Part shown: piece by piece, positions 8,974-37,098 of the stretch | Position numbering within the stretch: position 1 is the stretch's first letter | Layout: every line of letters begins with the position of its first letter | Assembly: GCA_964462865.1 (NCBI GenBank) | Contig: CAYWZO010000005.1 | Location: forward strand, 1 to 54,481 | Source: an uncultured Dehalococcoidaceae bacterium | Lineage (GTDB): Bacteria > Chloroflexota > Dehalococcoidia > Dehalococcoidales > RBG-16-60-22 | DNA: 54,481 nt | Reading direction: 5' to 3' | Program-made: the position numbers and the translations under genes | The notes under the pieces: generated by a model | Databases searched by the model: none | Seen by the model: the letters and a program-made list of their open reading frames with translations, nothing else | What the model was told of the DNA's origin: nothing

Positions 8974-9215
8974 ACTGGTACTCCTTTCGGCGGGTCAATT
9001 AACTCCGCCGGTCATGGCGCCTAAAAGAAACGTATATCAAATACCGTTTATGATTATAAACGGTTTTAAGCGGTTTGGCTAGGCGGGGAAAATATGACCG
9101 GGCTGTAAATCATACCGAATATTGTTACATTTTTATGCTAACCGGAGTTACGTCACATACGTTATTTATTATAGGTGATATAATCAAATTGGTACCAACC
9201 GGGGGAGGGAAAAGA

Positions 9216-12536: not shown

Positions 12537-12579
12537 TTCTCATTTCCTCCTTCTTAATATTAACCCGTCCGTGTTTAGC

Positions 12580-13392
12580 TTATTCTGCGGATGTGCGGCC
12601 TGTTCCCGGATACAGCTTTTGTGCTATCAGGGCCGCTCCGGTAGCGCCGACAATCTGCGGCTCGAAGCAGATGTGTGCCTTGGTGCCCAGCTTGTCTTCA
12701 ATCCTTCGTACCACTCCGATATTTTTCGCAATTCCCCCCGAGATTACCAGGTCATCTTTAACCCCGGTTCGCTGGAGTAACAGGAGTATCCGCTGCACCA
12801 GGGCGTCGCAATAAGCTGCCAGGACGACGTTTCTCGGCAGGCCGCGCCGCAGCATCCGGAGGGCTTCCGATTTAGCGAAGACCACGCAGGCGCTGCCCAA
12901 TTGCGGCGGCTTTTCCTGAACATCGAGTGACATCGGGCCGATGTCTTCAAGACGTACGTCAAGCAGCTTGGCCATGACCTCCATGGACCGGCCCGTGCCC
13001 GCCGCGCATTTTTCGTTCATAACGAAGGAGGTAACTCTCCCGTTTTCATCGCAGCTCACGGCTTTACAGTCCTGCCCGCCCATGTCCAGCACCGTTCGTG
13101 CCCCGGGGAAGAAGTAATGGGCGCCGCGAGCGTGGCAGGTAATCTCCGTCACGTTTTTACTGGCATACGGTACCTGGTAGCGGCCGTATCCCGTCCCCAC
13201 CACGTATTTGATATCGTCCCGGGAAATATCGATTCCCTGTAACGCCAGGTCGAGTACCTTGTAAGACGTTTCTTTTTTATCAATCCCTACGTTTATATTA
13301 CTGAACGAGAGGATAGTGCCGTTTTTTAATATGACCGCCTGGGCGCTCGACGAGCCGACGTCGATACCGGCCGTAATTAATTCGTGTTTCAT
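12580..13392 (-). CDS. ASKHA ATPase activase, benzoyl-CoA reductase BzdQ-like
   Basis: GIDVGS, GTGYGR, TEITCHARGA, LDMGGQDCKA, MNEKCAAGTG, CVVFAKSE. Confidence 0.88.
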   Translation of the reverse strand: MKHELITAGIDVGSSSAQAVILKNGTILSFSNINVGIDKKETSYKVLDLALQGIDISRDDIKYVVGTGYGRYQVPYASKNVTEITCHARGAHYFFPGARTVLDMGGQDCKAVSCDENGRVTSFVMNEKCAAGTGRSMEVMAKLLDVRLEDIGPMSLDVQEKPPQLGSACVVFAKSEALRMLRRGLPRNVVLAAYCDALVQRILLLLQRTGVKDDLVISGGIAKNIGVVRRIEDKLGTKAHICFEPQIVGATGAALIAQKLYPGTGRTSAE

Positions 13393-13406
13393 CTCAAGTC
13401 CTTATG

Positions 13407-14183
13407 CTACAATGTCTGTTTATCACGGGCGGTCAGGGCCGCCCCGATAGCGGTGATGATGCGCGGCTCTTCGGGAACGATAACGGCCAGGCCGAGCTTT
13501 TGCCCCAGCAAATCGACGATGCTTGGGTTCCGGGCCACTCCCCCGATGAACAGGATATCTTTTTCAATCCTTAATTCCTGCAACAGCGAGGCCGCCTTGG
13601 CGGCGATGGCATCGCATACCGCCCGGGCGATATCGTCTTTATGGGATCCTTCGTTTATTAAGGAAATAACCTCGGATTCGGCGAAAATCGTGCAGGTGCT
13701 GTTCAGGGTTATCTTGTTTTTGGAGAGGAGTGAGGCCCGGCTGATGTCTGCCGCGGATAACTCCAGGATAGAGGCCATCTCGGTGATGAAAGCGCCGGCG
13801 CCGGCCGCGCACTGGTCGTTGCGGACGTACTGTAAAATCCGGCCCTCGCCGTCAAGCACCATGGCCTGGCTCTGCTCTGCACCGATGTCGATGACCGTCC
13901 TCGTCCCCGGGAAAAGCCATACCGCCCCTCTGGCGCTGCAGGTGGATTCCGTGGTATGGACGGTAGCCAGGGTAGCGCTTTCTTTCCCCATGCCGGTGGC
14001 CCCGACGTGAGTGATTTTCCCGGGGTCCAGGCAGGCTTTTTCGACTGCCTCATCGAAGGCGTTCTGTAACGATGCCTGCGTATCCCAGCCGCTGGGGACC
14101 ACGCTGTAAGCCAGCAGGCGGTCACCTTCGATAACCGCTACCTTGGTGTTTTCGGCACCTATATCTATTCCGGTACTTAACAT
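13407..14183 (-). CDS. ASKHA ATPase activase, benzoyl-CoA reductase BzdP-like
   Basis: GIDIGA, IDIGAEQ, RNDQCAAGAG, CTIFAESE; DIGAE variant as recalled for BzdP. Confidence 0.85.
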   Translation of the reverse strand: MLSTGIDIGAENTKVAVIEGDRLLAYSVVPSGWDTQASLQNAFDEAVEKACLDPGKITHVGATGMGKESATLATVHTTESTCSARGAVWLFPGTRTVIDIGAEQSQAMVLDGEGRILQYVRNDQCAAGAGAFITEMASILELSAADISRASLLSKNKITLNSTCTIFAESEVISLINEGSHKDDIARAVCDAIAAKAASLLQELRIEKDILFIGGVARNPSIVDLLGQKLGLAVIVPEEPRIITAIGAALTARDKQTL

Positions 14184-14219
14184 AATTATCCCCGGATTAC
14201 ATTATCGGCGGGATAAGGC

Positions 14220-15563
14220 TTACCCCTCCGTATCACTGTCTTTTTCATCGAGTGAGCTGATTTTCGTCAGGCCGAGACTCTCGAAGAAACGGCTGAAATC
14301 TTCTCTCACGCGGGCCTCATTCCATTCCTTGGGGTCGCCTTCGCTGGCCTCGTAGGTAGCCAGCGGTATGCCCGCCGCGCGGATGTCCTGTATTCTCGTG
14401 TAAATCCCCTGGCAAAGGGCGGCACAGCGGCGCGCCAGGTGCATCATAATGCCGTCAATATGCCAGTCCTCGACCATACGCAGAAAGTGAAGGAGTCGCC
14501 ACTCCGGCGCATCGAAGTCCACGCCATCCTCTTCGGGCGGGTAACGTTGCTCCACCAGCGCCTGCAGGGCGTCCTCCCGGTTTTTCAGTTCAATCCCTCG
14601 CTCTTCCAGTGTCTGGCCCGGCATCCGGTGGCCATCGGCGGTATGGCGGAAAGTCCCGAAGGCCATCATGAATTCGCCCTGGTTGAAGGCGGCGCCGTAC
14701 TCTTCTGGCCACCGCAGCAGGTCCGGCCGGTACAGGGGGTGCAGGCCTTCGTGGGCCAAACGCTTTTTCTCGAAAGGCGCCCCGGATATTTTGTCTTTCA
14801 CGCGCTGCTGAATCTCGTGGTAGAGACTTTCCATGTATTCCGCCGTCCCCCGGCTGTAGGCGTAGGTGACGAGGGGCAGGCGCAATGACATGGCCTGCCG
14901 GTAGCTCATCGGCGCGGGAATAGCCTTCATCAGCTCGCAGATTTTAGCCCACAACACCCGGGAGCGGATATCATATTTGGTAGCCTCGATGAAACGTTCG
15001 TCGTCAAACTTGAGCTTGGTGCGTTTTTCAATCCACTCGATAACGTAGGAGAGCTGGGAAAGGAGATAATTACGGGTGTTGGCGGTATTTTTGGGCGGCG
15101 CCTCGATGACGAGCATGGGCAGGCCCAGTAAATCGGCGCATATCTGCCCTCCCTTATACTGCGCGTGGCAGCCCTGGGGCTGGAAAACAAAATCGGGCAT
15201 CATCTGCTTGCCTGATGAACCCCCGAACGAGGTCCCGGCGTACACCTGCCCCAGATGCGCCGCGATGGCCCCGCAGACCGGGGTCAAACCGCTGCCTTCC
15301 GCCAGGTTAACGAACTTTACCAGTCCTTCCGACCCGGCTCCCTCCCGTGCGATTCGTGTGAAATCCGTACCGGGTGAAGGATTGCCGAAATTACCGAAAC
15401 CGGCCAGCAGGGGAAGATATCCCCAGGCGAAACCGGTGACGCAGAGCCCGCCCTTGGTCTGGGCTTCAAAGGACAGCTTGTAACGCTCCCTCCGGAGCTC
15501 TTTCATCCGCATCCATACTTCGTCAGAAAAGGCCCTTGTCTCAAAATCCGGCTTTGTTTCCAT
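14220..15563 (-). CDS. 2-hydroxyacyl-CoA dehydratase family subunit, divergent BzdO-like
   Basis: 447 aa; PVCG, QGCH, WHIDGIMMHLARRC, YEASEGDP; lies between the N-like and P-like genes. Confidence 0.78.
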   Translation of the reverse strand: METKPDFETRAFSDEVWMRMKELRRERYKLSFEAQTKGGLCVTGFAWGYLPLLAGFGNFGNPSPGTDFTRIAREGAGSEGLVKFVNLAEGSGLTPVCGAIAAHLGQVYAGTSFGGSSGKQMMPDFVFQPQGCHAQYKGGQICADLLGLPMLVIEAPPKNTANTRNYLLSQLSYVIEWIEKRTKLKFDDERFIEATKYDIRSRVLWAKICELMKAIPAPMSYRQAMSLRLPLVTYAYSRGTAEYMESLYHEIQQRVKDKISGAPFEKKRLAHEGLHPLYRPDLLRWPEEYGAAFNQGEFMMAFGTFRHTADGHRMPGQTLEERGIELKNREDALQALVEQRYPPEEDGVDFDAPEWRLLHFLRMVEDWHIDGIMMHLARRCAALCQGIYTRIQDIRAAGIPLATYEASEGDPKEWNEARVREDFSRFFESLGLTKISSLDEKDSDTEG

Positions 15564-15607
15564 ATCATTACTTCCTTTGCTAACAGGTGATTAGCCTGGC
15601 TGTTATT

Positions 15608-16732
15608 TCATATGGCCGTGAGCATTTCCAGGAAAGCCTCGATGCGGGTACGGAATTGGCCCACGGGCACGGTGTAGTCCAGTTCGAGCTTGAGCATGGG
15701 GACGCCCTTTTCCTTGAAAAAAGATTCTACAGCCGGGTAGTCCAGGCCGTGGGCGTCGCATTGCCGCTGCATGGTGTAGATGGCCCCCTGGACTTTATAA
15801 TCGTTGATGAGCCTGGCATAGTGGTTGAGCCGCCACCTTTCTGGCAAATCATGCAAAGGGCATGGTGGCTTGTCAACCAGCCGGGCGGCGATGGCAGCCA
15901 GCCGGTCATCTTCCGGGACAACCTCCGTCTGGTAATAGCGGTTGCCCGTGCAGTAATCGTCGATGACCACCCGGCCCCCCAGGGAATCGATGAACCGGAT
16001 AAGTTCGATGTTATTGTTCACGCTGCCGAGGAGCATGAGCCTGGGGCCTTGCCGGGCTACACCGGCACGTTGCGGGATTTCTTTTATAGCTGCTTCGAGG
16101 AGGTGGTTGTGCTCTTCCCGGTCCATGAGCATCCCGGCCAGGGTTATTTCGGCCACCTCCGCCTCGGTCAGCGGCGGGGTGTCAGCTTGCATCGTGGCGG
16201 TAATTTTAGCCACCAGCTGGCGGTTCAGATTGTAGATATTTATTGCCCTGTCAATAGCCTCGCCGGTGATTGGCTTCCCCGTCCATTTCTCCAGCGATGC
16301 CTGGCACTCTACCAGCTCCCGGGCAAGGTACTCCTTGGCATACGGATTCTGCAGGCACATCGGCGAATGAATTTCATAACTATAGGCCACGGGTACGTGA
16401 CGCTGCCAGTCCAGGAATACCTCCCGGGCGTGCGGGCAGCATTGTGAGAAAATGATACCATCAATGTAGTCGTAACGACCCTGGAGGGCCTGCGCGAAGC
16501 AATCGCGGGCAAAGGAGCAAAAGGCCGCCTGAAAGATGTACGGCCGGGTGATATTCTCCGGTTCGTTGGTCCCCAGGAGGCGGACCGGAAGGATACCGGC
16601 AGCATAAATCAGTTCTTCCGGCAGGTTCGAGCACAGCGCCCCGATGACTCTGCCGCCCGTTTTCGATTTCCAGTCTCGCGCGGACTGGTGGGGATTCGTC
16701 ACGATAGCGTGAAATTCATCGAAAATACTCAT
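15608..16732 (-). CDS. 2-hydroxyacyl-CoA dehydratase family subunit, BzdN-like
   Basis: WKSKTGGRVIG, PEELIYAAGILPVR, FCSFARD, DDYCTGNRY, QRQCDAHGLD. Confidence 0.87.
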   Translation of the reverse strand: MSIFDEFHAIVTNPHQSARDWKSKTGGRVIGALCSNLPEELIYAAGILPVRLLGTNEPENITRPYIFQAAFCSFARDCFAQALQGRYDYIDGIIFSQCCPHAREVFLDWQRHVPVAYSYEIHSPMCLQNPYAKEYLARELVECQASLEKWTGKPITGEAIDRAINIYNLNRQLVAKITATMQADTPPLTEAEVAEITLAGMLMDREEHNHLLEAAIKEIPQRAGVARQGPRLMLLGSVNNNIELIRFIDSLGGRVVIDDYCTGNRYYQTEVVPEDDRLAAIAARLVDKPPCPLHDLPERWRLNHYARLINDYKVQGAIYTMQRQCDAHGLDYPAVESFFKEKGVPMLKLELDYTVPVGQFRTRIEAFLEMLTAI

Positions 16733-16789
16733 ATCATCCCCTCCGGGAACGGCCTGAAAACAGCCTCTTCATTCCCTAAGAAATTCATA

Positions 16790-17785
16790 TTAATTATCCG
16801 CGTTAACCTCTCCGTCCCTGGTAAAAAGTAAACACGCCACAAAATGCCCTGGACTCACTTCTTTCATCGCCGGGGCGGTCTGCGAACAAATCGGCATGGC
16901 GCTGGCGCACCGCGGGTGAAAGGCGCAACCGCCGGGAGGATTAATGGGACTGGGCACCTCACCGGGGAGGATATTCCTGGTCCTCTTGGCATCCGGGTTA
17001 TCGGGCAGGCTGGCAGCCAGCAGGGCCTTGGTGTAGGGGTGCAGCGGGTTACGGCTTAACTCCCGGCTGGTGGTGTTTTCCACGATTTTTCCCAGGTACA
17101 TCACGCTGATCCGGTGGCTCATGTATTTGACCGTGGCCAGGTCATGGGCGATAAATAGGTAGCTGATACCCATATTGTTTTGCAGGTCTTTGAGGATGTT
17201 CATCAATTGCGCGCGGATGGAAACATCCTGCGAAGATACCGGCTCGTCAAGGATAATAAGACGTGGATTGGATACCAGTGCCCTGGCGATGGCAATCCTC
17301 TGCCTTTGCCCGCCGCTGAATTCATGGGGGTATTTACGGGCATCGTTGGGGTCCAGGCCGGCCGCCAGCAGCGCTGCCTCCACCCTGTTCCTGACATCTT
17401 TTTTATCGGTTTTCACGCCGGTGGTAATCGGCTCGCTGATGATGCTGCCAACGTGCATTCTCGGGTCCAGCGAGGAAAGGGGATTTTGAAAGACCGCCTG
17501 GACACTGTGGCGGTATCGCTTGAGGTCTTCTCCGGAAAAACCCCGCAGGTCCTTACCTTTGAATTCGATAAGACCATCGGTCGGTGGCTCCAGCAGAAGC
17601 ACGAGCTTGCTTAAAGTGGTCTTGCCACAGCCTGATTCGCCGAGCAGTCCGAGAGTCTCCCCGTCGCCGATACGTATATCCACCCCGTCAACGGCTTTGA
17701 TCCACCCCAGTGTCTTGGCAAAGAGGAGTCCCTTGGTCACCGGGTAATATTTTTTAACGCCCTTGGTCTCCAGTATCGTTTCCAT
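16790..17785 (-). CDS. Dipeptide/oligopeptide-type ABC transporter ATP-binding subunit (DppF/OppF-like)
   Basis: GESGCGKTT, FSGGQRQRI, ILDEP, HPYT, GCAFHPRC; start ATG 17785 overlaps the upstream TAA. Confidence 0.93.
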   Translation of the reverse strand: METILETKGVKKYYPVTKGLLFAKTLGWIKAVDGVDIRIGDGETLGLLGESGCGKTTLSKLVLLLEPPTDGLIEFKGKDLRGFSGEDLKRYRHSVQAVFQNPLSSLDPRMHVGSIISEPITTGVKTDKKDVRNRVEAALLAAGLDPNDARKYPHEFSGGQRQRIAIARALVSNPRLIILDEPVSSQDVSIRAQLMNILKDLQNNMGISYLFIAHDLATVKYMSHRISVMYLGKIVENTTSRELSRNPLHPYTKALLAASLPDNPDAKRTRNILPGEVPSPINPPGGCAFHPRCASAMPICSQTAPAMKEVSPGHFVACLLFTRDGEVNADN

Positions 17786-18774
17786 TATTGCTGTCCCTGT
17801 GCTTGCCAGCATCTGGCATAATGGTCCGGTCCTACCTGTCTCAAAGGAGGCACTTCGCGGTGGCAGCCCTCGTTGGTCTGGGAACAACGCGGTGCAAAGC
17901 TGCACCCCTCGGGCACCCTGTCGAGCCTGGGCGGCTGTCCCTTGATGGAGACCAGTCTTTCGGTCTCCTTCTCCAGTTTGGGGACTGCCTTGAGTAGAGC
18001 TGCGGTGTACGGATGGACCGGCCGGAAGAAAATGTCCCTTACCGGGGCGGTTTCCACCACCTTGCCGGCGTACATCACGGCCACGCGGTCGCACATCGAA
18101 GCTACAATCCCGAAATCATGGGTAATGAATATCAACGACATCCCGAATTCATCCTGAAGGTCTTTGAGGAGTTGCAGGTATTGTGCCTGGATGGTCACAT
18201 CCAGAGAAGTGGTTGGTTCGTCAGCAATCAGCAAACGCGGGTGACAGGAGATGGATATGGCGCCAACAACCCGCTGCTTCATGCCCCCGCTCATCTGGTG
18301 GGGATAATCGCGGAGGCGTGCCTCGGGAGAGGGTATCTTCACGCGTTTGAGCATGTCAATGATTCTCGATGCGAGGTCTATCTTTTTAACTCGGGTATGC
18401 GTGGTGATGGCCTCGCCTATCTGGTCGCCGATATTGAACACCGGATTCAAGGACGCCATCGGGTCCTGCAAAATCATGGATATTTTTCTCCCGCGGAGCT
18501 TTTGCACCTGCTTTTCCGTCATCTTTAAAATATCTTCACCCTCGAAGAGGATTTGCCCGCCCACGATGTTACCGGCGGGCCGGGGCAATAATCTCAATAT
18601 GGAAAGCGAGGCCACGGTCTTGCCGCACCCTGATTCACCCACAATGCCCAGGGTCTCATTTTCATCAACGTGAAAACTGACTCCATCCACAGCTTTGACC
18701 GTAGAGTACGGTGTAATAAAATAAGATTTCAGGTCAATTACATCTAGCAACCGTTTCCCCAAAATTTCCTCCAC
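17785..18774 (-). CDS. Dipeptide/oligopeptide-type ABC transporter ATP-binding subunit (DppD/OppD-like)
   Basis: GESGCGKT, MSGGMKQR, IADEPTT, HPYT, GCSFAPRC. Confidence 0.93.
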   Translation of the reverse strand: MEEILGKRLLDVIDLKSYFITPYSTVKAVDGVSFHVDENETLGIVGESGCGKTVASLSILRLLPRPAGNIVGGQILFEGEDILKMTEKQVQKLRGRKISMILQDPMASLNPVFNIGDQIGEAITTHTRVKKIDLASRIIDMLKRVKIPSPEARLRDYPHQMSGGMKQRVVGAISISCHPRLLIADEPTTSLDVTIQAQYLQLLKDLQDEFGMSLIFITHDFGIVASMCDRVAVMYAGKVVETAPVRDIFFRPVHPYTAALLKAVPKLEKETERLVSIKGQPPRLDRVPEGCSFAPRCSQTNEGCHREVPPLRQVGPDHYARCWQAQGQQ

Positions 18775-18784
18775 AAGCTTTTTT

Positions 18785-19660
18785 CTAACGCCGGTGTATC
18801 AACGGGTTAAGCCAGTCGTTGAGCGCATCCCCCAGCAGGTTAAAGGTCAGCACGGTTAAAGCGATGGCAATGCCCGGAATGATACAGAGCCACCAGGCGG
18901 TAACGATGTATGACCTGCCTTCGGACACCATCGAACCCCAGTCGGCGGTGGGCGGCGGGATACCGACACCCAGAAAACTCAACGAGGCCTCGACGATAAC
19001 AATCGTACCTACCTGAAGGGTCGCCAGGATAATAATCGGACTGACGACGTTCGGGAATATATGGCGCGTCATGATACTTGCCCGGGAGCAGCCGGCAATC
19101 TTGGCCAGGGCAATAAAATCGAACTCTTTGACCTTTAGTGTCTCGGCCCTGGCCATCCTGGCGTAGCCGGCCCAGAGTGTAAAGCTGATTATCATGACCA
19201 GTATCTGAAAACTCGGCCCGAAGATAGCCCCCAGGAGCAGGGCCAGCAGTATGGCCGGCAGTGAAAAAACCAGGTCTACCGCTCTCATGATGATGATGTC
19301 GGCCCAGCCGCCGATATAGCCGGCGATGATGCCCAGGAGGGTCCCCAGGGTGCCGGCGATGATGACCACCAGGGCGCATACCGAGAGCGTCGTCCTGGCG
19401 CCGAAGATGATACGGCTTAATATGTCCCTGCCGAGCGTGTCGGTTCCCAGGGGGAAATCAGACCTGCCGCCTTCCTGCCAGACCGGCGGTAGCAGGCGGT
19501 TGTCCAGCACGCCGACATTGGGGTCGTGAGGCGCGACCCATGGCGCCAGTAGCGCCGTCAGTATTAATATCAGTCCGATAATGCTGAATATTATAACTGT
19601 CGGGCTAAGGCGTATTTTCCTACCTTTTACGTTCTTTTCATTTAATTGTATGTCGCTCAT
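18785..19660 (-). CDS. ABC transporter permease (DppC/OppC-like)
   Basis: LGTDTLGRDILSR, RHIFPN, EASLSFLGVG, DWG. Confidence 0.93.
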   Translation of the reverse strand: MSDIQLNEKNVKGRKIRLSPTVIIFSIIGLILILTALLAPWVAPHDPNVGVLDNRLLPPVWQEGGRSDFPLGTDTLGRDILSRIIFGARTTLSVCALVVIIAGTLGTLLGIIAGYIGGWADIIIMRAVDLVFSLPAILLALLLGAIFGPSFQILVMIISFTLWAGYARMARAETLKVKEFDFIALAKIAGCSRASIMTRHIFPNVVSPIIILATLQVGTIVIVEASLSFLGVGIPPPTADWGSMVSEGRSYIVTAWWLCIIPGIAIALTVLTFNLLGDALNDWLNPLIHRR

Positions 19661-19711
19661 AGGCTATTCTCGGGCCTGTTATATCATTCGTTCTTTTTCT
19701 TGAGCCGTTTT

Positions 19712-20632
19712 TTACGTATATCTGATACGAGGGTCGACATAGGCGTACAATATATCAACAACTAGGTTCGCGGTAACGAACATAAAGGTGATGAAAAGTA
19801 CCACCGCCTGAATCATGGGGAAATCCCGGGTGGAGACCGCTTCCCAGGCCAGGCGGCCCAGTCCCGGCCAGGCGAATATCGTCTCGATAACCACCACCCC
19901 GGTCATCAGTCCTGTCAGCAGCGTACCGAGAAATGTCAGCACCGGTATCAGGCTGTTGCTGAAGGCGTGCTTCCAGATGACCAACCTTTCGTCCAGCCCC
20001 TTGATTCTGGCCAGCTTAACGTACTCCCCGCTCAAGACATCCAGCATGCTAGAACGCGTCAGGCGGACGATGCCCGCTAAGGATATTCCGCTTAAAGCTA
20101 CCGCCGGCAAAATTATCTGCTTGAAGCTGCCGTAACCGGAGGTGGGCAGCAGGCGGAATTGCACGCTGATAACGTACATCAGGACGATACCGACCCAGAA
20201 AGCCGGCATGGACTGTCCCAGCATCGCCAGCACCCTGCCTGCGGTGTCCAGAAACGACCCACGGCGCACAGCGGAAATTACCCCTATCGGTATGCCGATG
20301 ATAATACTCAAGAGCATGGCGGCGACAGCCAGTTGAAAAGAAGCCGGTATCCTCTCCACGATCTGGTCCACCACCGGACGGCGCGCGCCCCGGATTGACC
20401 TGCCGAGGTCTCCCTGCAGCGCCTTTTTCAAGAAGATGGCGTATTGAACCGGTATTGGTTTGTCCAGCCCTAGTTCCCTGGTTACCAGCTCGACATCTTC
20501 CTTGGTGGCGAGGTCACCCAGCAACAGGGGTACCGGGTCGCCGCTCAATCTTCCCAGAAGGAAGACGATAATGCTCATCAGGAAGATGGTTATAATCGCC
20601 TGAATAATACGTTTGATAAGATATCGCTGCAT
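19712..20632 (-). CDS. ABC transporter permease (DppB/OppB-like)
   Basis: GDLGRS, SMPAFW, TRSSMLDVL...ARIKGL, ETIFAWPGLG, DPRIR. Confidence 0.93.
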   Translation of the reverse strand: MQRYLIKRIIQAIITIFLMSIIVFLLGRLSGDPVPLLLGDLATKEDVELVTRELGLDKPIPVQYAIFLKKALQGDLGRSIRGARRPVVDQIVERIPASFQLAVAAMLLSIIIGIPIGVISAVRRGSFLDTAGRVLAMLGQSMPAFWVGIVLMYVISVQFRLLPTSGYGSFKQIILPAVALSGISLAGIVRLTRSSMLDVLSGEYVKLARIKGLDERLVIWKHAFSNSLIPVLTFLGTLLTGLMTGVVVIETIFAWPGLGRLAWEAVSTRDFPMIQAVVLFITFMFVTANLVVDILYAYVDPRIRYT

Positions 20633-20939
20633 TTCCTTATTTCATCGAGTTCAGAAACCCGGTACGTTTACTCTCAAACGTCTCCTATAAATTATAAATA
20701 CATCACGTGTTATCAGCTATGCTTCAATAGCATGTGCAATTTATAGAAAATACCAGCTAGCACGGTCCTGGCGGAACAGAGGCATTATCCCGATATAACC
20801 TGACTATTACCTCTGTTCCGCCCAACGTTCTGATTAGACCGATGGCACTTTATCTTACGGCTGATAACCTTTATACTTCAACAGTCCGAAGTTATCCAAC
20901 CGGTGTCCAATATTCTATTTAAGCCGCTTATCATTATCA

Positions 20940-22649
20940 CTATTGCGCTTTGGTAATCTGGTCGAAGTTCGTGGGATAGTTGGTGATAGTCGGCCAGCTC
21001 CCGATTACCGGGTTGACGGCGTAGGGTTCCTCGGCGCTGATCAGGAAGATAAAAACAGCCTCGTCGGTAAGGTAGTCATAGATATCTTTTAATAACGCGA
21101 GCCTCTTGGCGGAGTCCGGCTCACTAAGGGCCGCGTCCGACATCTTATCGAGCTCCGGCGTGGTAAATATCGCGAACACGCTTTTATCCGTATAAGCCGC
21201 CGTCAGACCGCCCGGGTCGTCCAGAGCAATGGGTGCCCCATAGGTGTGGGTCCAGAACATGTTCTGGGCTTTCGCTCCGGTCCAGGATGCCCTGATAGTG
21301 GGATAGTCGGTCGGTATTATTTTTACATTAATACCTACGGCTTCCCAATAGGTAGCAACCGCCAATCCGATATCAGGGAGTTGCGCGCCTGGATTTCTGG
21401 CACAGGTGTAAAAAGTTACATCGAAACCATTGGGATAGCCTGCATCGGCTAACATTTGCTTTGCCTTAGCTTCGTTGTAGGGGTATGCCGGTGCTGCCTG
21501 GTCGACGAAATTGTGTGGATTGAAGTTGGACCTGGCCGCGCCGTGGAAAATGTTCCTGGCAATAGCGTCTTTATCGACAGCGTAGTTCAGGGCCTGGCGG
21601 ACTTCCTTTTTAGCCCAGGGGGCCGTTGGGTTATAACGAACAGGGTCGGTCTCCACCAGGCCGCCCATTAAGATTCTCGGCGCCCAGGAGTCTTTCTGGG
21701 CGAGGATGTTGAATTTTGAGGCCTTGACCGTATTGACGGAGTCCAGGCTGATGGGGGCCATATCGGCCTCGCCGACTTTCAGCATCGCCACCCGGGTTGA
21801 TTCCTCCGGTACGCCGTAAAAGATAATATCCTTAAATTCCGGGGTGACGCGCCAGTGGTTTTCCACGCCGGGAACGGTGGTTACTTTAATCGATACGCCG
21901 CGTTTATGTTCGGCCAGGGTATAGGCGCCGGTCCCGATGGGGTGAGAATCAGCCCTTTCATCACCCACCTGCTCAACGTACTTCTTACAGACGATATGGT
22001 TGGAAATGGTATTGGAAAGCCTGTTCCAGAACGTAAAGTCGGCGGTGTTAAGTTTAAAGACGGCCGTATATTTATCAGGGGTTTCGACGGTAAGATCAAA
22101 GGAGCGGAAAGTTGATGCTTGGGCTGCCTTGGAAGCAGGTTCAATTTGTCGTTCGAAAGTGTACTTGACGTCCGCGGATGTCAATTCGCCCCAGTTTTCA
22201 TGGAATTGAATGCCTTCCCGCAGCTTGATGGTCCAGGTCTTGCCGTCAGGCGTCATTTCCCAGGACTTTGCCAGACCGGGCAGGGGCAGTTTGGTGGCGG
22301 GGTCCAAGTAAAGCAGGTACTCGAAAATTGTATCGATGTAGAATTTCCGCCCTGAAGCACCGTTCCAGGGCAGGAAAGTCTCGTCCTCCAGACCGGGCAT
22401 GGCTACCTTTAAAACACCGGTGGGGGACTTCTTCGCCGCGGTAGGGGCGGTAGTGGTTGCCGGCGTCGTCTTCGGAGTGGTGGCCGTGGGTGTGGTGGTC
22501 GCCGCTGGTGTGGTGGTTACGACTGGTTTCGTGGTGGTTGCCGGAGCGGTCGTTGTCTCGGTTGTTTTACAGGAACCGACCAGGAGCATGAAGACCGTCA
22601 TCAGGATTAAGGCAAGACTACAGGCAAGGACTAACTTGTTTCTCTTCAT
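20940..22649 (-). CDS. Family 5 ABC substrate-binding lipoprotein with Thr/Pro-rich linker
   Basis: Lipobox LVGS-C; PGLAKSWE, LREGIQFH, PIGTGAY, VRQALNYAVD, AKQMLADAGYPNGF. Confidence 0.92.
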   Translation of the reverse strand: MKRNKLVLACSLALILMTVFMLLVGSCKTTETTTAPATTTKPVVTTTPAATTTPTATTPKTTPATTTAPTAAKKSPTGVLKVAMPGLEDETFLPWNGASGRKFYIDTIFEYLLYLDPATKLPLPGLAKSWEMTPDGKTWTIKLREGIQFHENWGELTSADVKYTFERQIEPASKAAQASTFRSFDLTVETPDKYTAVFKLNTADFTFWNRLSNTISNHIVCKKYVEQVGDERADSHPIGTGAYTLAEHKRGVSIKVTTVPGVENHWRVTPEFKDIIFYGVPEESTRVAMLKVGEADMAPISLDSVNTVKASKFNILAQKDSWAPRILMGGLVETDPVRYNPTAPWAKKEVRQALNYAVDKDAIARNIFHGAARSNFNPHNFVDQAAPAYPYNEAKAKQMLADAGYPNGFDVTFYTCARNPGAQLPDIGLAVATYWEAVGINVKIIPTDYPTIRASWTGAKAQNMFWTHTYGAPIALDDPGGLTAAYTDKSVFAIFTTPELDKMSDAALSEPDSAKRLALLKDIYDYLTDEAVFIFLISAEEPYAVNPVIGSWPTITNYPTNFDQITKAQ

Positions 22650-22792
22650 TCAAACGCCTCCTTTTAATTGGTTAATCATGAGGTTTTAAACGCGGGATAA
22701 TCACTATCTCGCCTGGCTCTCGTCTGAATCTCTTCGTCTTACCCCCTTTCCCGCGGTAATTTTCACAGCGTCTTTTAAACTCTTACATATCG

Positions 22793-24013
22793 TCAGATTA
22801 CTTTTTCTTCTTTAAACTGCGTAATATCATCCCAACTGTACCCCCCAAGCTCCTGAAGCACCTCCTCGGTATGCTGGCCGAACTCCGGCGCCGGGCTCTG
22901 GACACCCGCCGGTGTAGTGTGGAATTTTACCGGACATCCTACCGTTTTTATTCTTCCGAGTGAAGGCTGCTCGTATTCCACGACGTATTTGTTATCCAGA
23001 ATCTGCGGGTCATCGGCCACATCCAGTCCCTCGTTGATGGGAGAAAACATGATGCGATGATATTTGCCCACGATTTCCACCCACTCGTCGCGCGGTTTGG
23101 TAGCAAAGACTTGGTCTAAAATATCTATCAATTCCCGGCAGTTTTTCGCCCTGGCCGGGGTGCTTTCGAACTTCGGGTCCTTTTCAAGATTTTCGATGCC
23201 GGCGGCCTTACAAAAATCCGGCCATACCCTGTCCGTGGCCAGGATGCAGAAACTGATCCATTTGCCGTCCTTACATTTGTAATGATTGGCGAGGGGATTG
23301 CTGACTGATTTCCTGTCTTCCCGAAGGAGTTCCTTCTTGTAAAAAAAGGTGTTGGTCAGTCTGACATGCTGGAGCGCGACCATGGAGCCGGTGATGGAAA
23401 TATCGATTTCCTGGCCGATTCCCAGCCTTTCCCGGGCCAGCAGCGCCGCTAATATGCCGTCAACGGCGATAATTGAAGTCATATGGTCGGCCATGGCCCC
23501 GCCCACTGCCGCCGGTTCCCCGAGGAGCGCCGTCTGGTTGGTCATGAAGCCGGAACGTGCCTGGCCCACATAGTCATTGCCGCGGCGCCAGTTGTCCGGC
23601 CCGTCAGGGCCAAGGCTGGATATATTGGCGTAAATTATCTTGGGATTGTATTGGGAAATCGTCTTGTAATCTAAATTCGCACGGTCACGCACGGACTGCC
23701 TGAAGTTCTGCAGAAAAACATCGCACTTTTGCACGAGCCGGTATATTATTTCCTTGCCTTTAGGTGTGGTGACGTCTACGGTGATGCACTTTTTATTACG
23801 GTTCACGCCGGTATACATGAATTCTCTCTCGGCGGTGGTGCGTCCCGTCGCCATCCCTTCCAGCCGCGTGATGCCGCGGCTGGGGTCGCCGACGACGGGT
23901 TGTTCGATCTTGATTACTTCCGCGCCCATATCTCCGAGCATCATGGTTGCCCCCGGGCCCGCCAGCCATATTGCCCACTCTAAAATACGGATACCATCTA
24001 AAGGTTTAGCCAT
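22793..24013 (-). CDS. Family III (CaiB/BaiF) CoA-transferase
   Basis: LGDMGAEVIKIE, NRNKKCIT, DVFLQNFR, MADH, APEFGQHT. Confidence 0.93.
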   Translation of the reverse strand: MAKPLDGIRILEWAIWLAGPGATMMLGDMGAEVIKIEQPVVGDPSRGITRLEGMATGRTTAEREFMYTGVNRNKKCITVDVTTPKGKEIIYRLVQKCDVFLQNFRQSVRDRANLDYKTISQYNPKIIYANISSLGPDGPDNWRRGNDYVGQARSGFMTNQTALLGEPAAVGGAMADHMTSIIAVDGILAALLARERLGIGQEIDISITGSMVALQHVRLTNTFFYKKELLREDRKSVSNPLANHYKCKDGKWISFCILATDRVWPDFCKAAGIENLEKDPKFESTPARAKNCRELIDILDQVFATKPRDEWVEIVGKYHRIMFSPINEGLDVADDPQILDNKYVVEYEQPSLGRIKTVGCPVKFHTTPAGVQSPAPEFGQHTEEVLQELGGYSWDDITQFKEEKVI

Positions 24014-24140
24014 TGTATCATGCCTTTCTAAAAATGATTTTTTACTGTGGTATTTGTCTTGTTATTTCTCTTGTTCACGGATGTCCCGCTTTTAAAGGTT
24101 GAATCCGTCAATGAACAAGAAGTGAGAAATGAAATTCACT

Positions 24141-24171
24141 ACATCATATACTATATAGAATATGATGTCAA
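24141..24171 (-). promoter_or_regulatory. Near-consensus sigma70 promoter overlapped by a 28-bp palindromic operator
   Basis: Minus strand TTGACA (24171-24166)-17 nt-TATGAT (24148-24143); palindrome ACATCATATACTATATAGAATATGATGT (24141-24168) is 26/28 self-complementary. Confidence 0.8.
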
Positions 24172-24355
24172 TATCGATATTAAATGTTTTTTCATTTTCG
24201 GTGAAGGAAATGGGATACATTAAAGATATAAAGTAAGGAATACTTGAGAATTTGTTGCTGTTTTATAAGAAAGCTGGTTAGTGGCTTAAACGCGCCCGGC
24301 GCTTTGAATCAGATAGTTGCCAGTAAATATCACCGGTCCGGTGTCAGAACTGCGC

Positions 24356-26749
24356 TCAAGCCGTTTGGTATTCTGTCCGGGCGATGATTTCATCCTGTAT
24401 TACTTTACCCAGCCCCGTAAAGTAGGCGCTGTAACCGGCCACCCTGACAATCAGGTCGCGGTGTTTTTCTGGATGCTGCTGGGCGTCCAGAAGCGTCACC
24501 CTGTCAACGATGTTGAATTGGACATGCTTGCCGCCAAGTTCAAAATAGGTACTGATTAAAATGGCGAGCTTACGCCTGTCCTCTTCCGTCCCGAGTGCGG
24601 ATGTATGGAATTTCATGTTCAGCAGTGTTGCCTGGAGGGTACTCTGGTCAATTTTCGAGGCGCTTTTCATGACCGCCGTCGGGCCGCGTACGTCTTGGCC
24701 CTGTACCGGCGACATACCGCCGTCGGCCAGGAACGTACCGGAATATCTGCCGTCGGGGGTGGCGCCTGTTTGGGCTCCCCCGGGCCACTGCGCCGAGATG
24801 GAAATAGCCGAGGGTTTATGTGTCCCGCCTACTATCGTGGGGAAATTTGCGGTAATTTCTGAAAAATACCTGTAAAGCTCGGCAGCCAGAGAGTCCGCGT
24901 AATCATCGTCGTTTCCGTACTTGGGTGCTGCCATAAAGGCTTTCCTCATCGCCTCGTAGCCTGCCCAGTTGGCGTGCAGAGCGGCCTGTAGTTCTCTCAT
25001 GGTGTATTTCCGCTCTTCGAAGATGAGCTTTTTGACCGCCGCGAGGGAATCGACCACATTGACCATGCCCACGGTGTTGAGCACCGCGCCATTCTCGAAG
25101 GGATAGGTACGGTCGAGAAGGCTCCGTCCCACCCTGACAGGGTCATCCAGCAGAGCGGTACGCACCGGGTCGGGGAAGATATCGGCATGAGCGCTCATCC
25201 AGATGTTATTATACTCGGCGTTCAATTGCAGGAAGTAAGACAGCTGTTGTTTAAAGGCGTTCACGAGTTCGTCGAAAGATTGAAAGGTCTCCGAATCTCC
25301 CGTTTTCGGGCCGAGTTGCCTTCCTGTTTTCGGGTCCACGCCGTTGTTCAGGGTGATATCCAGCACCATCGGCGTGATGAACATGGCAAAGGCGCTGATG
25401 CGGGATTTCCCCGGGATACTGGCGTCAAGGCAGCCGCCCAGGGCGTAATTCCTTGCGTCTTCGAGCGGGACTCCCTGACGGCACAGATAACTGATATACG
25501 AATTATCACCAACAAAAGCAGGCAGGCCGATTCCGGTCTGAAGTACTTCGATACTTTTAAGTAACAGCGCCTCGGGTGTTTTTTCGTGCACTCTCACGGT
25601 GATGGTGTGATGGGGCGTGGGACAGCGCCGCGCCGCTTCCAGGATAAGGTAGGAAAGCTCATTGGTGGCGTCCTGCCCGTCACGCGTCTGACCGCCGATA
25701 ACACAGTTATGCCATTTGGCTTTGCCGGCATCTTTCTGTCGGTTCTCCTTGCCCGATATTCTGTTCAACTCCATGTCCTTGATGCGGAGGCACTGCAGCA
25801 GCTCAAGTGCTTCCTCATCGGAGATAAGTCCCTGCTCTATATCCCTTTTGTAATAGGGATAGAGATATTGGTCCATTCTGCCCATCCCCGCCACCGTGGA
25901 AGGGTTAATCATCAGGAAGGCAAACCAGAAAGACTGGATGGCTTCACGGAAAGTGCGCGCCGGATTGGCCGGCACCTGCCGGCACGTGGCGGCGATTATC
26001 TCCAGTTCTTTTTTACGTGCCGGGTCCTTTTCCCTTATCGCCGTCTGTGCCGCGAGTATGGCGAACCTGCTGGCGAAACGGACGACGGCGTTGAGTGAAA
26101 TAATCAGGGCATTAAGAAAATGTCCCTTTTCTACCGAGCCGGTATTCAGGAACGTGAGTTTTTGAAGTTCCTTCTCTGCCTCATTGATGATATCGAGCAG
26201 GCCGTGCTGGAGCACTTTCTCGTAATCTTCAACGTTATTGTAAAAGCCCGGGCCGAGTCCCATGCCGCTCTCGGCGTAGCCGCCGCCGCTCCCTTCCGCT
26301 TTGCTTTTCCAGGGCGCCAGCACCATGCCCGTTTGCATGAAGGGCCAGAGCCTTTCATCATCAAAAGAATGGCCTATCCTGGCAACGAGGCTCTTTCCTC
26401 TCCAGTATTCGTTGATAGCTTCAGCCTCTCTTAAATCGCGGTCGTTGATTAACCACCCCTCCTCTTTCAGGGCGTTTATTTCATCCTCCGGCCAGGGCCC
26501 GTAATTAAACTCCATCTCGACACCCAGGTAGGTGCTGGCCCCGTTGCCGACGATGAGTTCGCCCTCCCTGATGAAAATGGTGATGTTGTCCAGGGAATGA
26601 GCCAGGGCTTTAGCTCTTCTAAGAATCTCCGGTTCACCCTCGGTCTGCCGGAACACCTCCGTCATCAGCCGCGCCTTTTCAATGCAGACGGGATATTTTT
26701 CGACCCGGAGCCCTGCCTTCAGTTTTTCAATCCGTGTTGTGCTCATCAT
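24356..26749 (-). CDS. Glycyl radical enzyme (PFL-like family), unknown reaction
   Basis: C-terminal RVAGYS glycyl motif, HVQFNI, TPDGR, single-Cys loop GGCLD; 797 aa. Confidence 0.93.
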   Translation of the reverse strand: MMSTTRIEKLKAGLRVEKYPVCIEKARLMTEVFRQTEGEPEILRRAKALAHSLDNITIFIREGELIVGNGASTYLGVEMEFNYGPWPEDEINALKEEGWLINDRDLREAEAINEYWRGKSLVARIGHSFDDERLWPFMQTGMVLAPWKSKAEGSGGGYAESGMGLGPGFYNNVEDYEKVLQHGLLDIINEAEKELQKLTFLNTGSVEKGHFLNALIISLNAVVRFASRFAILAAQTAIREKDPARKKELEIIAATCRQVPANPARTFREAIQSFWFAFLMINPSTVAGMGRMDQYLYPYYKRDIEQGLISDEEALELLQCLRIKDMELNRISGKENRQKDAGKAKWHNCVIGGQTRDGQDATNELSYLILEAARRCPTPHHTITVRVHEKTPEALLLKSIEVLQTGIGLPAFVGDNSYISYLCRQGVPLEDARNYALGGCLDASIPGKSRISAFAMFITPMVLDITLNNGVDPKTGRQLGPKTGDSETFQSFDELVNAFKQQLSYFLQLNAEYNNIWMSAHADIFPDPVRTALLDDPVRVGRSLLDRTYPFENGAVLNTVGMVNVVDSLAAVKKLIFEERKYTMRELQAALHANWAGYEAMRKAFMAAPKYGNDDDYADSLAAELYRYFSEITANFPTIVGGTHKPSAISISAQWPGGAQTGATPDGRYSGTFLADGGMSPVQGQDVRGPTAVMKSASKIDQSTLQATLLNMKFHTSALGTEEDRRKLAILISTYFELGGKHVQFNIVDRVTLLDAQQHPEKHRDLIVRVAGYSAYFTGLGKVIQDEIIARTEYQTA

Positions 26750-26870
26750 AACTTCACCATACTTCTATCGTCAGTAAAAAGGTGCTTCAAGGCAATTATA
26801 CAATTATGTAGCAAGAGAATGATAACGGTTCTGCCTGTTATCGCCCCATGTGGTTCTTTTTGAAGCTAAG

Positions 26871-26971
26871 CGGGGAAAGGGTAGAGTCGAACTCCCACTG
26901 AAACACGATATATCCTAAAATGGCTTTCTGAGTTTGTTTCCGTGTCTAGCTTACTTTAGCTATGTATCCCC
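26871..26971 (-). ncRNA. tRNA-like cloverleaf with 33-nt anticodon loop (degenerate tRNA, att remnant or ncRNA)
   Basis: Reverse complement GGGGATA-CA-TAGC-TAAAGTAA-GCTA-G-ACACG-(33 nt)-CGTGT-TTCAGT-GGGAG-TTCGACT-CT(A)CCC-TTTCCCC-G; TATAAT 12 nt upstream. Confidence 0.45.
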
Positions 26972-27060
26972 TCTTTTTACGATATTATACCTGGTATTGT
27001 TTACGGGGCAGGTCACTCGGGGTCTCGGGGTATGTAAAGGTATTGCAAACTGATAAATGG

Positions 27061-27069
27061 TGGTATAAT
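27061..27069 (+). promoter_or_regulatory. Extended -10 promoter for the enolase-family gene
   Basis: TGGTATAAT about 30 nt upstream of AGGAG and ATG 27101. Confidence 0.6.
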
Positions 27070-27100
27070 CTACTACAACTTTACCTTGTGAGGAGTGAAA

Positions 27101-28285
27101 ATGAAGATATCCAAAATAGAATGCTTCCCGCTTAGCTTGGTTTACCCACCGCCCAGAAAGCGTACCGGCAAAGTCGTCCTGATAAAAATACATACCGACG
27201 AGGGTATCGTGGGGGTGGCCGAATGCGGAGATTTAATCAATACTTCGTACGACCAGGACATCGTGATGCTCATAATCAAAAGCTGGGAGCCTGTCCTGAT
27301 CGGGGCCAATCCCTTCGATAAAGAGCTTATCCTGGCTAAAATCAACCATCTTATCCATAACGTTACCGGCGGTCTGTCTTTCCCCAACGTGGTGGCACTG
27401 ATCGACTTCGCTTTATGGGACCTGGTGGGAAAGGCGTTGAACCAGCCCATTTACCAGCTCCTGGGGGGAAAAGCCTGTGACAAGCTGGCTGTCGATTACG
27501 TGATTGGCGACGTCGCCAACCTGTCACCCGCAGAGATAGCTAAAAAGGTAGAAAGGATTCTGGACAACGGCATCCGGACCGTTTGTCTCAAGGTGGGAGG
27601 TTTCTGGGGCAGCGATTTCGAACGCGATATCCTGAATGTGAAGACCGTTAGAAAAGCCATCGGCGACCGCGAAGACGTACACCTGTGCATCGATGCCAAC
27701 GGGGCCATGGATTACACCAAATCGCTGGAGCTAATCCGCCGCCTGGAGGACTGTAACCTGTACAAGTTCGAGCAGCCCACGTTTTCGTGGGACGTGGATG
27801 GCCTGGCGCGTTTACGCAAGAGTACCAAAGTCGCTATCTGCCCGCATGAGAGCAGTACCACGGTTTCTGCCCTGATGGAGGTCATTAAAAAAGACGCCGG
27901 CGACTTCGCAGGCACCAAGCTTGCCTGGGCGGGCGGTATCTCCGAGGGGGTGAAGTGGGGAGCCGTCGCCAAAGCGGCTGACCTAGGTGTGTATTGCGGC
28001 TCTATGAACGGGCCTTATGAGGCGGTGTTCCAGGCACAATGGCTGGCTTCAGACGCCTGGTACGGTAAACTTGCCCATGCCAATTTCTTTCCTATGATGT
28101 TCCATGATACCTTTGATACTACCCGCGACCTACAACGGGAAGATATCGTCGTCAGACCTATGGCCTACAAGGATGGCTACTTCTATCCGCCTGATGGGCC
28201 AGGCGTAGGTCTGGAGCTGAATGAAAAGGCCCTCCCTAATTTCATTACGCCGGGAATGAGCCCCATCACGATTGGGGGGAAATAG
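27101..28285 (+). CDS. Enolase superfamily protein (mandelate racemase/muconate lactonizing enzyme type)
   Basis: TDEGIVGVAE, IDFALWDLVGK, DANG, FEQP, PDGPGVG; AGGAG RBS before ATG 27101. Confidence 0.9.
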   Translation: MKISKIECFPLSLVYPPPRKRTGKVVLIKIHTDEGIVGVAECGDLINTSYDQDIVMLIIKSWEPVLIGANPFDKELILAKINHLIHNVTGGLSFPNVVALIDFALWDLVGKALNQPIYQLLGGKACDKLAVDYVIGDVANLSPAEIAKKVERILDNGIRTVCLKVGGFWGSDFERDILNVKTVRKAIGDREDVHLCIDANGAMDYTKSLELIRRLEDCNLYKFEQPTFSWDVDGLARLRKSTKVAICPHESSTTVSALMEVIKKDAGDFAGTKLAWAGGISEGVKWGAVAKAADLGVYCGSMNGPYEAVFQAQWLASDAWYGKLAHANFFPMMFHDTFDTTRDLQREDIVVRPMAYKDGYFYPPDGPGVGLELNEKALPNFITPGMSPITIGGK

Positions 28286-28442
28286 CACACCTTCGACTGT
28301 ACAGGACCTTATTCAACTAAAAAGAATAAGCGACTACAAAACGCCGGGAGGTGTCAGGTTCCGGCGCCAGAGGCTATTCTGACTGTGACTTAAGAAGTGG
28401 TATCATTATTGGGGGCAGGTCAGAAAAAGGAAGGCTATTAAT

Positions 28443-36821: not shown

Positions 36822-37016
36822 TACTATCTCTTAGTGAGTAATCATTATCAATTTTATCATTTATTCCGTTATTATACGAAATCAAAGTTACTTGCGGTCG
36901 TTCATAAATAAGATTGTTGTTCAAGGAACCGAGGGCAAGATCTGCTATAAGCCGCCGGTGCCGCCGAAATGGCAAGAAAACGATGAGTTTTCAGTTCTGC
37001 CTATTGAACCCCCGAG

Positions 37017-37098
37017 TGGGGAAGGGGGGACTCGAACCCCCACGCATTGCTGCACTGGATCCTAAGTCCAGCCCGTCTGCCAGTTCCGGCACTCCCCC
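37017..37098 (-). tRNA. tRNA-Leu (TAG)
   Basis: Reverse complement GGGGGAGTGCCGGAACTGGCAGACGGGCTGGACTTAGGATCCAGTGCAGCAATGCGTGGGGGTTCGAGTCCCCCCTTCCCCA; long variable arm; CCA not encoded. Confidence 0.95.

Follow-up and report, generated by a model that had tools for sequence, protein, structure and literature searches.

The cloverleaf-like segment on the minus strand of positions 26870–26971 is very probably the decayed attR-type junction of an ssrA-specific genomic island of the kind known from Dehalococcoides, and most likely neither a tRNA, nor an intron-bearing tRNA, nor a leader of the neighboring glycyl radical enzyme (GRE) gene. It lies in the window (the entire 54,481-nt stretch of DNA analyzed here) within a 352-nt spacer separating two divergent genes, the GRE gene (24356–26749, minus strand; PFL-like and Gly_radical domains) and an enolase-superfamily gene (MR_MLE; 27101–28285, plus strand). 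According to our model, a DsiB-type large serine recombinase would have inserted an island in the T loop of tmRNA, such that the right-arm core of the island (26887–26905) became joined to a repeat of ssrA's 3' end (26868–26886) that is degenerate today. As the end of tmRNA is a tRNA-like domain, the junction is tRNA-like in appearance. The remaining parts of the cloverleaf (GGGGATA, the D-like hairpin, and the ACACG/CGTGT stem) would derive from the island right arm, and their pairing register may have arisen by accident or, in any case, have nothing to do with tRNA function. The junction would now be a fossil that has lost the recombinase gene and the clean repeat and is abutted by the GRE promoter module.

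Probable junction of an island arm and a tmRNA 3' end

In Dehalococcoides, ssrA-specific islands are arranged in tandem, with ssrA and 20-bp repeats of its 3' end as their boundaries (PMC3146451, PMC2764846). They are inserted by a large serine recombinase of the DsiB family, with the crossover halfway through the T loop of tmRNA; the right end of the island imitates ssrA just upstream of the crossover, beyond which follows the copy of about 20 bp of the ssrA 3' end (PMC3146451). A TTCAG... motif of island origin is found directly upstream of every ssrA repeat, and the 3' end of dsiB always overlaps attL (PMC3146451). Traces of similarity extend over about 150 bp around each repeat (McMurdie et al. 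2009, PMC2764846). A 2026 paper describes the same kind of island in Dehalogenimonas.

Read from 26971 to 26871 on the minus strand, the segment consists of GGGGATA-CA-TAGC-TAAAGTAA-GCTA-G-ACACG, a 33-nt loop, and CGTGT-TTCAGT-GGGAG-TTCGACT-CTACC-C-TTTCCCC-G. From the island right-arm core, TGTTTCAGTGGGAGTTCGA (26887–26905, minus strand), come the 3' strand of the anticodon stem, the variable region, the 5' strand of the T stem, and the T loop's first half; this core imitates ssrA just upstream of the crossover without being identical to it. The same core is present in the strain contigs L018 and L019 as well as in the relatives L026 (two copies) and L027, and dozens of recombinase fragments terminate in its antisense translation, '..RTP(P/T)ET..'. 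[quoted passage not shown] The junction is thus in mid-T loop and has a right-arm motif starting with TTCAG upstream, 16 nt from the repeat. Although the copy of the ssrA 3' end has decayed to 12/19 in the window, this repeat is intact in the 90%-identical L026 copy.

Across the junction, the 18-mer GGGAGTTCGACTCTACCC (26879–26896, minus strand) matches the T arm of a genuine Dehalococcoidia tmRNA (L036, 7609–7260) at 17 of 18 positions, with an alignment score of 31 compared with a mean of 18.4 and a maximum of 32 for 500 shuffled sequences. When T arm and repeat are taken together as a 30-mer, 22 of 30 positions agree with tmRNA, at the sole such site in the window; a binomial estimate puts the chance of such a match at about 0.004 per window. 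The window, both L026 copies (A and B), and tmRNA share the core and diverge exactly after GGAGTTCGA. This homology to tmRNA and att sequences also explains the one tRNA hallmark that the segment displays, a TTCRANY T loop closed by a G-C pair (GGGAG TTCGACT CTACC).

No recombinase relic overlapping or following the repeat was detected in the window by local alignments (z of 0.6–1.1). As 15 of 31 islands are devoid of an integration module (PMC3146451), such a recombinase overlap at the repeat is not obligatory. A MAFFT alignment had hinted at a relic in window 26790–26886 and in the regions upstream of the GRE orthologs of L001 and L002, which was discarded as local alignments scored at the shuffle level. 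The 54-kb contig harbors neither an ssrA (tmRNA) gene nor a second repeat; it is therefore the 90% identity with the clean L026 copy on which the assignment of the window copy depends. Two other kinds of mobile element were considered for the segment and rejected. An island at the tRNA-Leu gene (37016–37098), with the segment as its distal repeat, fitted in geometry, and the 3' ends looked alike to about 76% by eye; here, the nearby genes encode molybdopterin and Fe-S oxidoreductases and no integrase, and the match to tmRNA is better. A MITE or IS framed by terminal inverted repeats (GAACTCC.../...GGGGCAGGTCA; 12/17 by eye) was dropped since the core corresponds to the T-arm region of tmRNA.

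The synteny break coincides with the repeat: homology on the GRE side extends to about 26832, while that on the enolase side begins at 27035 (L004) or 26879 (L026). Thus, as in the Dehalococcoides islands, a fragment of the tmRNA 3' end resides in an intergenic spacer at a break of synteny, directly preceded by a right-arm motif starting with TTCAG. Unlike in these islands, the copy in the window is degenerate (12/19), its recombinase is lost, and no ssrA gene is visibly within reach on this 54-kb contig; islands of this type are located downstream of, and within about 100 kb of, a single ssrA gene. Further differences are the lineage, here represented by a metagenome-assembled genome of the uncultured Dehalococcoidales/Dehalococcoidaceae, the sequence of the right-arm motif, which deviates from TTCAGRSMGMRKCCA of Dehalococcoides islands, and the neighboring genes, which encode an enolase-family enzyme, a molybdopterin oxidoreductase, and corrinoid methyltransferases instead of reductive dehalogenases.

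The tmRNA gene and recombinase relics in relatives

A genuine tmRNA gene adjoins smpB in L036 and L037 (identified by ARAGORN, tag AEPVMVAA, and by Rfam RF00023 with 169 bits). Its 3' end reads ...GGACGGGGAGTTCGACTCTCCCCCGTCTCCACCA, also written as ...CTTCTGGACGGGGAGTTCGACTCTCCCCCGTCTCCACCA. In L026, the sequence after GGAGTTC continues with TACCCTCCCCCGTCTCCACCAG..., and an open reading frame on the opposite strand ends with ...SSLFLVETGEGRTPPET. From GGAGTTC onward, L026 is 88% identical to the L036 tmRNA end and the antisense recombinase (score 189 versus 18.6 ± 2.3 for shuffled sequences). The L026 copy also contains, without any deviation, the primer TGGTGGAGACGGGGGAGGG, which was designed by McMurdie et al. 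for the ssrA direct repeat of Dehalococcoides (PMC3146451).

What is left of the C-terminus of a DsiB-like large serine recombinase overlaps the ssrA repeat of L026. The relic peptide has 526 homologs, many of them named 'site-specific DNA recombinase' and originating from Chloroflexota or Dehalococcoidales, and all of these homologs are short fragments among the matches listed. About 90 fragments whose sequence was examined represent C-terminal ends of DsiB-like recombinases, with tails that translate antisense tmRNA or island-arm DNA; they match the C-terminus of full-length relatives (546 and 540 aa) composed of the Resolvase, Recombinase, and Zn_ribbon_recom domains. One of them, P0149, is present in both L036 and L037, where it adjoins smpB and overlaps the genuine tmRNA gene. 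Antisense to the tmRNA end lies the coding sequence of the conserved recombinase end, ...FLVETGE(S/G)RTP.., after which the tails fall into two classes: the first, RTPRPEE..LQA, is the antisense of genuine ssrA, and the second, RTPPET..., that of the island right-arm core TGTTTCAGGTGGAGTTC; the window reads RTPTET. The 3' end of a DsiB-like recombinase over the repeat (L026, L036, and L037) and the exact primer match (L026) are further features shared with the ssrA islands of Dehalococcoides.

Partial copies of T arm and acceptor at island borders are also known from integration events that duplicate the 3' part of a tRNA-like gene. Most integrases targeting tRNA and tmRNA genes are tyrosine recombinases, unlike the enzyme here, which is a serine recombinase.

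Several observations were made alongside. One of the recombinase fragments is named 'ethanolamine ammonia-lyase large subunit' in its source record, and another 'regulation of enolase protein 1'. A Moco (molybdenum cofactor) riboswitch (66.5 bits) is located a few hundred nucleotides past the recombinase relic adjoining ssrA (L036, 6407–6532; L037, 891–1016); in L036, it precedes a minus-strand cluster that includes a gene with a faint Oxidored_molyb match. In viral contigs, the island-arm core pattern gave seven matches, none of them in a tRNA, and the recombinase search retrieved nothing.

Linkage of the segment to the divergent genes

The first-pass annotation had considered the segment a processing or regulatory leader of the GRE transcript. 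Such a tRNA-like leader or processing signal of the GRE mRNA would be compatible with the position of the segment, which shares its strand with the GRE gene and precedes the start codon region by 120 nt, and with the TATAAT hexamer upstream of the segment; we nevertheless regard this possibility as extremely unlikely in view of both flanks of the spacer. The two closest GRE orthologs (L001 and L002; 84% amino acid identity) occupy other genomic contexts and have only the proximal promoter and 5' UTR in common with the window (about 26750–26832), including an invariant TATAAT (26800–26795, minus strand); the GRE promoter, with this -10 hexamer, is therefore located downstream of the cloverleaf. 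The element itself is absent from L001 and L002, which share the conserved -10 hexamer and 5' UTR. Immediately upstream of the conserved GRE promoter, window 26821–26842 (minus strand) forms an imperfect palindrome, GATAACAGGCAGAACCGTTATC, which may be an operator; no T tract follows it, and its 3' end (..TATCATTCTCTT) is partly common to L001.

Instead, the element goes with the enolase-family gene at a locus where the GRE is absent. In L026 and L027, a block corresponding to 26879–27100 and 90–91% identical to the window is present upstream of an enolase-family gene of at least 90% identity, in a different context and with no GRE nearby. A 94% identical enolase ortholog (L004) aligns with the window only from position 27035. 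Strain contigs of 99% identity are also informative: L018 and L019 contain the entire spacer with one substitution, and L020 lacks 58 nt (26860–26917), a deletion that removes the core, the decayed repeat, and the entire 3' half of the cloverleaf; L020 retains a complete enolase gene, and its GRE gene is unchanged as far as it is present on this contig. Based on the block in L026/L027 that occurs without a GRE and on these ortholog and strain comparisons, the element is linked to the enolase gene and not to the GRE gene. The -10 hexamer of the divergent enolase-family gene (TGGTATAAT, extended -10; 27064–27069, plus strand) is kept in L004, L011, L026, and L028. The element thus presumably plays no role in GRE expression and would be part of a spacer between two independently conserved divergent promoters.

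In L026/L027, a second copy of the core (copy B, TGTTTCAGGTGGAGTTCGA; L026 3946–3964, L027 1512–1530) is located downstream of the enolase-family gene, which is thus bracketed by direct core copies. Copies A and B of L026 align locally with a score of 43 (16.7 ± 2.5 for shuffled sequences). As copy B is not followed by an ssrA repeat in L026, not every core copy represents a textbook att site.

The surroundings of the enolase-family gene yielded further observations. Enolase-family genes of at least 90% amino acid identity occur in at least four neighborhoods (L004; L023–L025; L026–L027; L028; and the window), and the gene behaves like mobile cargo; in L023–L025 it has been called as two pieces of 65 and 182 aa, the latter matching MR_MLE_C. 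Two independent short-read contigs break at or in the element (L008/L021 start at the equivalent of window position 26974, L027 at that of 26890), as expected for a repeat or a site of strain variation. The enolase-family gene is flanked by two equally oriented copies of the motif GGGGCAGGTCA (27005–27015 and 28412–28422), embedded in about 26 nt of similarity (TGGTAT..TT..GGGGCAGGTCA) and also found in L026; the motif could be an IS end or an operator. Just 3' of the enolase-family gene, the C-terminal relic of an IS3-family transposase was identified (window 28367–28393, L026 4040–4215; rve_3, E = 1.4e-8; NCBIfam transpos_IS3). The L026 version is frameshifted and about 170 nt long, and merely the last ~11 codons are left in the window, apparently because the sequence between CCGGCRC microhomologies was deleted. 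In L009, three tandem copies of a unit of about 95 nt (…GAGGTTCGGGATACTTCCTTTTTAAATCTCCAAGCTTGGGGGATAAAGGGGGTTGACCTTGACTTCTTCAGCAATCTATCAG…) precede an enolase homolog of 74% (about 330–620).

On the opposite side of the spacer, the minus-strand interval 11322–26749 begins with the GRE gene and continues with genes for a family III CoA-transferase, a peptide-type ABC transporter, 2-hydroxyacyl-CoA dehydratase subunits along with their BcrAD/BadFG-type activator, and another CoA-transferase. Among the ORFs scanned in this interval, which did not include 13407–14183 and several others, none encodes a radical SAM enzyme for GRE activation. Farther away, a gene for a 473-aa serpin (9075–10496; Pfam Serpin, E = 5e-119) is present on this bacterial contig.

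The tRNA-like fold and its meaning

All base pairs listed in the first-pass annotation, comprising the D stem, the anticodon stem, and the spacing between helices, could be traced on the minus strand from 26971 to 26871. The same applies to the finer details: the TTCGACT T loop is flanked by GGGAG and CTACC, the pairing of which involves either a G.A mismatch together with an additional C, or else a bulged A, and the acceptor stem has a single T.T mismatch between GGGGATA and the 3' strand TTTCCCC. The over-long anticodon loop measures 33 nt, the D loop is devoid of G18G19 (G18-T19 is read instead), and TATAAT precedes the cloverleaf by 12 nt, compared with 11 nt for the tRNA-Gln gene in the window. 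This hexamer (26984–26989, minus strand) has neither a -35 element nor a TG extension, was not listed by the promoter scan, and is kept in L026 together with the whole block. With the tRNAs and tRNA pseudogenes of RF00005 the segment shares the TTCGACT T loop, a G53-C61-type closing pair, and four helices in cloverleaf order. Unlike these tRNAs, it has a 33-nt 'anticodon loop' in place of a 7-nt loop and a 6-nt variable region (TTCAGT), lacks U8, G10, A14, and G18G19 (positions 8, 10, and 14 being C, T, and T), and has no match to the model; CCA is absent as well.

Scoring by ARAGORN, which had been proposed as a check, and by Rfam did not support a tRNA. ARAGORN made no call on the segment with its default, -i, or -ps settings, and Rfam returned no tRNA or tmRNA match in the spacer, be it at the gathering score, at E ≤ 10 on 651 nt, or with the 3' half alone. 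Across the window, Rfam recognized only three real tRNAs; RF00023 gave no match, and the window thus contains no full-length tmRNA by this model (L036 control, 169 bits). The segment was accepted by ARAGORN, as 'tRNA-Tyr(ata)' with a 28-nt intron, only at thresholds of ≤91% with introns of 0–60 nt allowed. Under this relaxed setting (91%, introns), 79 matches were obtained per 2.18 Mb of dinucleotide shuffles, corresponding to about two per window, and the window itself gave three further matches with coordinates inside listed ORFs.

We consider it very unlikely that the segment is a decayed ordinary tRNA gene carrying a 26- to 28-nt insertion in its anticodon loop. Its cloverleaf register and a TATAAT spacing similar to that of the tRNA-Gln gene would fit such an origin, and after excision of 28 nt by hand ARAGORN accepts the sequence at a 97% threshold, at which 2.18 Mb of intronless shuffles gave no match. 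The cut, however, was chosen post hoc, and the fair, intron-allowed test yields the about two matches per window mentioned above. In addition, Rfam remained silent even on the 3' half alone, the conserved nucleotides U8, G10, A14, and G19 are missing, those of the D arm included, and the 5' half is unlike any tRNA at hand. The 3' half is already accounted for by homology to tmRNA and att sites, with an exact ssrA repeat in L026. Of the 'decayed tRNA' originally suggested, one part can be retained, in that the tRNA-like domain encoded by the tmRNA gene ssrA was either the source of T arm and 3' strand at an island attachment site or is imitated by them; decay of a tRNA gene finds no support in a segment with no tRNA-model signal and a 5' half that resembles neither tRNA nor tmRNA.

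That an AT-rich spacer would fold into a cloverleaf by pure chance, with no historical tie to a tRNA-like gene, is highly unlikely for the segment as a whole. The frequency of false positives under relaxed ARAGORN settings would be in line with such a coincidence, as would the origin of the segment from a scan and its modest folding energy (MFE of -25.6 kcal/mol, z = -1.65; 10 of 200 shuffled sequences fold equally well). Chance is contradicted for the 3' half by the T arm and core that tmRNA and island junctions have in common to an extent far beyond random expectation. For the 5' half, it would remain a component of the best explanation. With explicit rules tailored to the candidate, 40 shuffled windows yielded no match, which indicates that the cloverleaf is uncommon, though it had been selected post hoc. 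When T arm and 3' strand were held fixed and the 5' part was shuffled, again with rules fitted post hoc, the tRNA register was reproduced in 2 of 20,000 sequences under strict pairing, in 5 with up to one mismatch, and in 82 with up to two. Only the T arm is demonstrably non-random, and homology explains it; the full cloverleaf is unusual, chosen post hoc, and not validated.

The rarity of the 5'-half register in shuffled sequences (2–5 of 20,000) speaks against the interpretation as an att scar, which leaves this register to chance. The distal right arm (26906–26971, minus strand) contains GGGGATA, the hairpin TAGC-TAAAGTAA-GCTA, ACACG, and most of the 33-nt loop, and is about 90% identical in L026. 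It was also considered as an internally deleted ssrA 5' end or a tRNA, and was dismissed as such for lack of significant similarity to tmRNA and the tRNAs at hand; a protein search with a spurious ORF reading through the right arm retrieved no homolog. Alternatively, the integration might have created a chimeric tRNA-like RNA, in which the right arm would provide the 5' two thirds together with TATAAT, and the displaced ssrA end would complete the structure; this RNA might be recognized by RNase P, the CCA-adding enzyme, or AlaRS. We judge this improbable, and a small probability is retained because the register recurs in so few 5'-part shuffles. Further points in its favor are that the L026 acceptor forms six of seven pairs including a G3.T70 wobble and ends with ACCA, that TATAAT is found 12 nt upstream in the window and L026 copies alike, and that these copies agree at each of the 25 stem positions in the 5' part, whereas the D loop and the long loop differ. 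Against this, the stem positions are merely invariant, with no compensatory changes, L026 is the only one of the relatives compared that differs, the loop differences are clustered and may represent one event, and the 3' strand has been replaced. Moreover, Rfam found no match to a tRNA or tmRNA model in the window or in L026, relaxed ARAGORN was silent at this position in L018, L019, and L026, and G3.U70 and CCA are lost in the window, as is the 3' half in strain L020. The tail of P0171, the sole more distant right-arm homolog visible, is similar only near the core and not in the D-arm/acceptor region, the TATAAT hexamer has no -35 and escaped the promoter scan, and the shuffle rules had been fitted post hoc. 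That the right arm itself would encode the 5' two thirds of a promoter-bearing tRNA-like RNA, complete only beside a displaced tmRNA end, seems very improbable to us. If true, the intact L026 form would have a G3.U70 acceptor and an encoded CCA and could be an integration-dependent sRNA that is alanylated or recognized by RNase P.

A tRNA-like sequence on the same island family has been described before: a 76-bp 'pseudo-tRNA' resembling tRNA-Gly is part of the mom gene in integration modules of ssrA islands (PMC3146451). Compared by description only, the latter resides about 4.4 kb from attL in a coding gene and has a 5-nt anticodon loop, whereas the element in the window is intergenic, has a 33-nt loop, and marks the opposite (right) end of an island.

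We thus return to the att junction as the preferred reading, which accounts for the resemblance to a tRNA: the segment would be a fossil left by island traffic at the tmRNA gene. For annotation, this means that sub-threshold tRNA calls at such junctions are att scars, that short proteins listed by the hundreds in metagenome catalogues as 'site-specific recombinase' or 'hypothetical' are C-terminal fragments, and that the GRE gene here has an ordinary promoter of its own. Features of this kind have already been described in Dehalococcoides and are found here in a new lineage with different neighboring genes. Integration of the ssrA/DsiB type, as known from Dehalococcoides mccartyi, very probably extends to uncultured Dehalococcoidales, where it is associated with genes other than those for dehalogenases, namely with an enolase-family gene (in at least four contexts) beside molybdopterin oxidoreductase and corrinoid methyltransferase genes.
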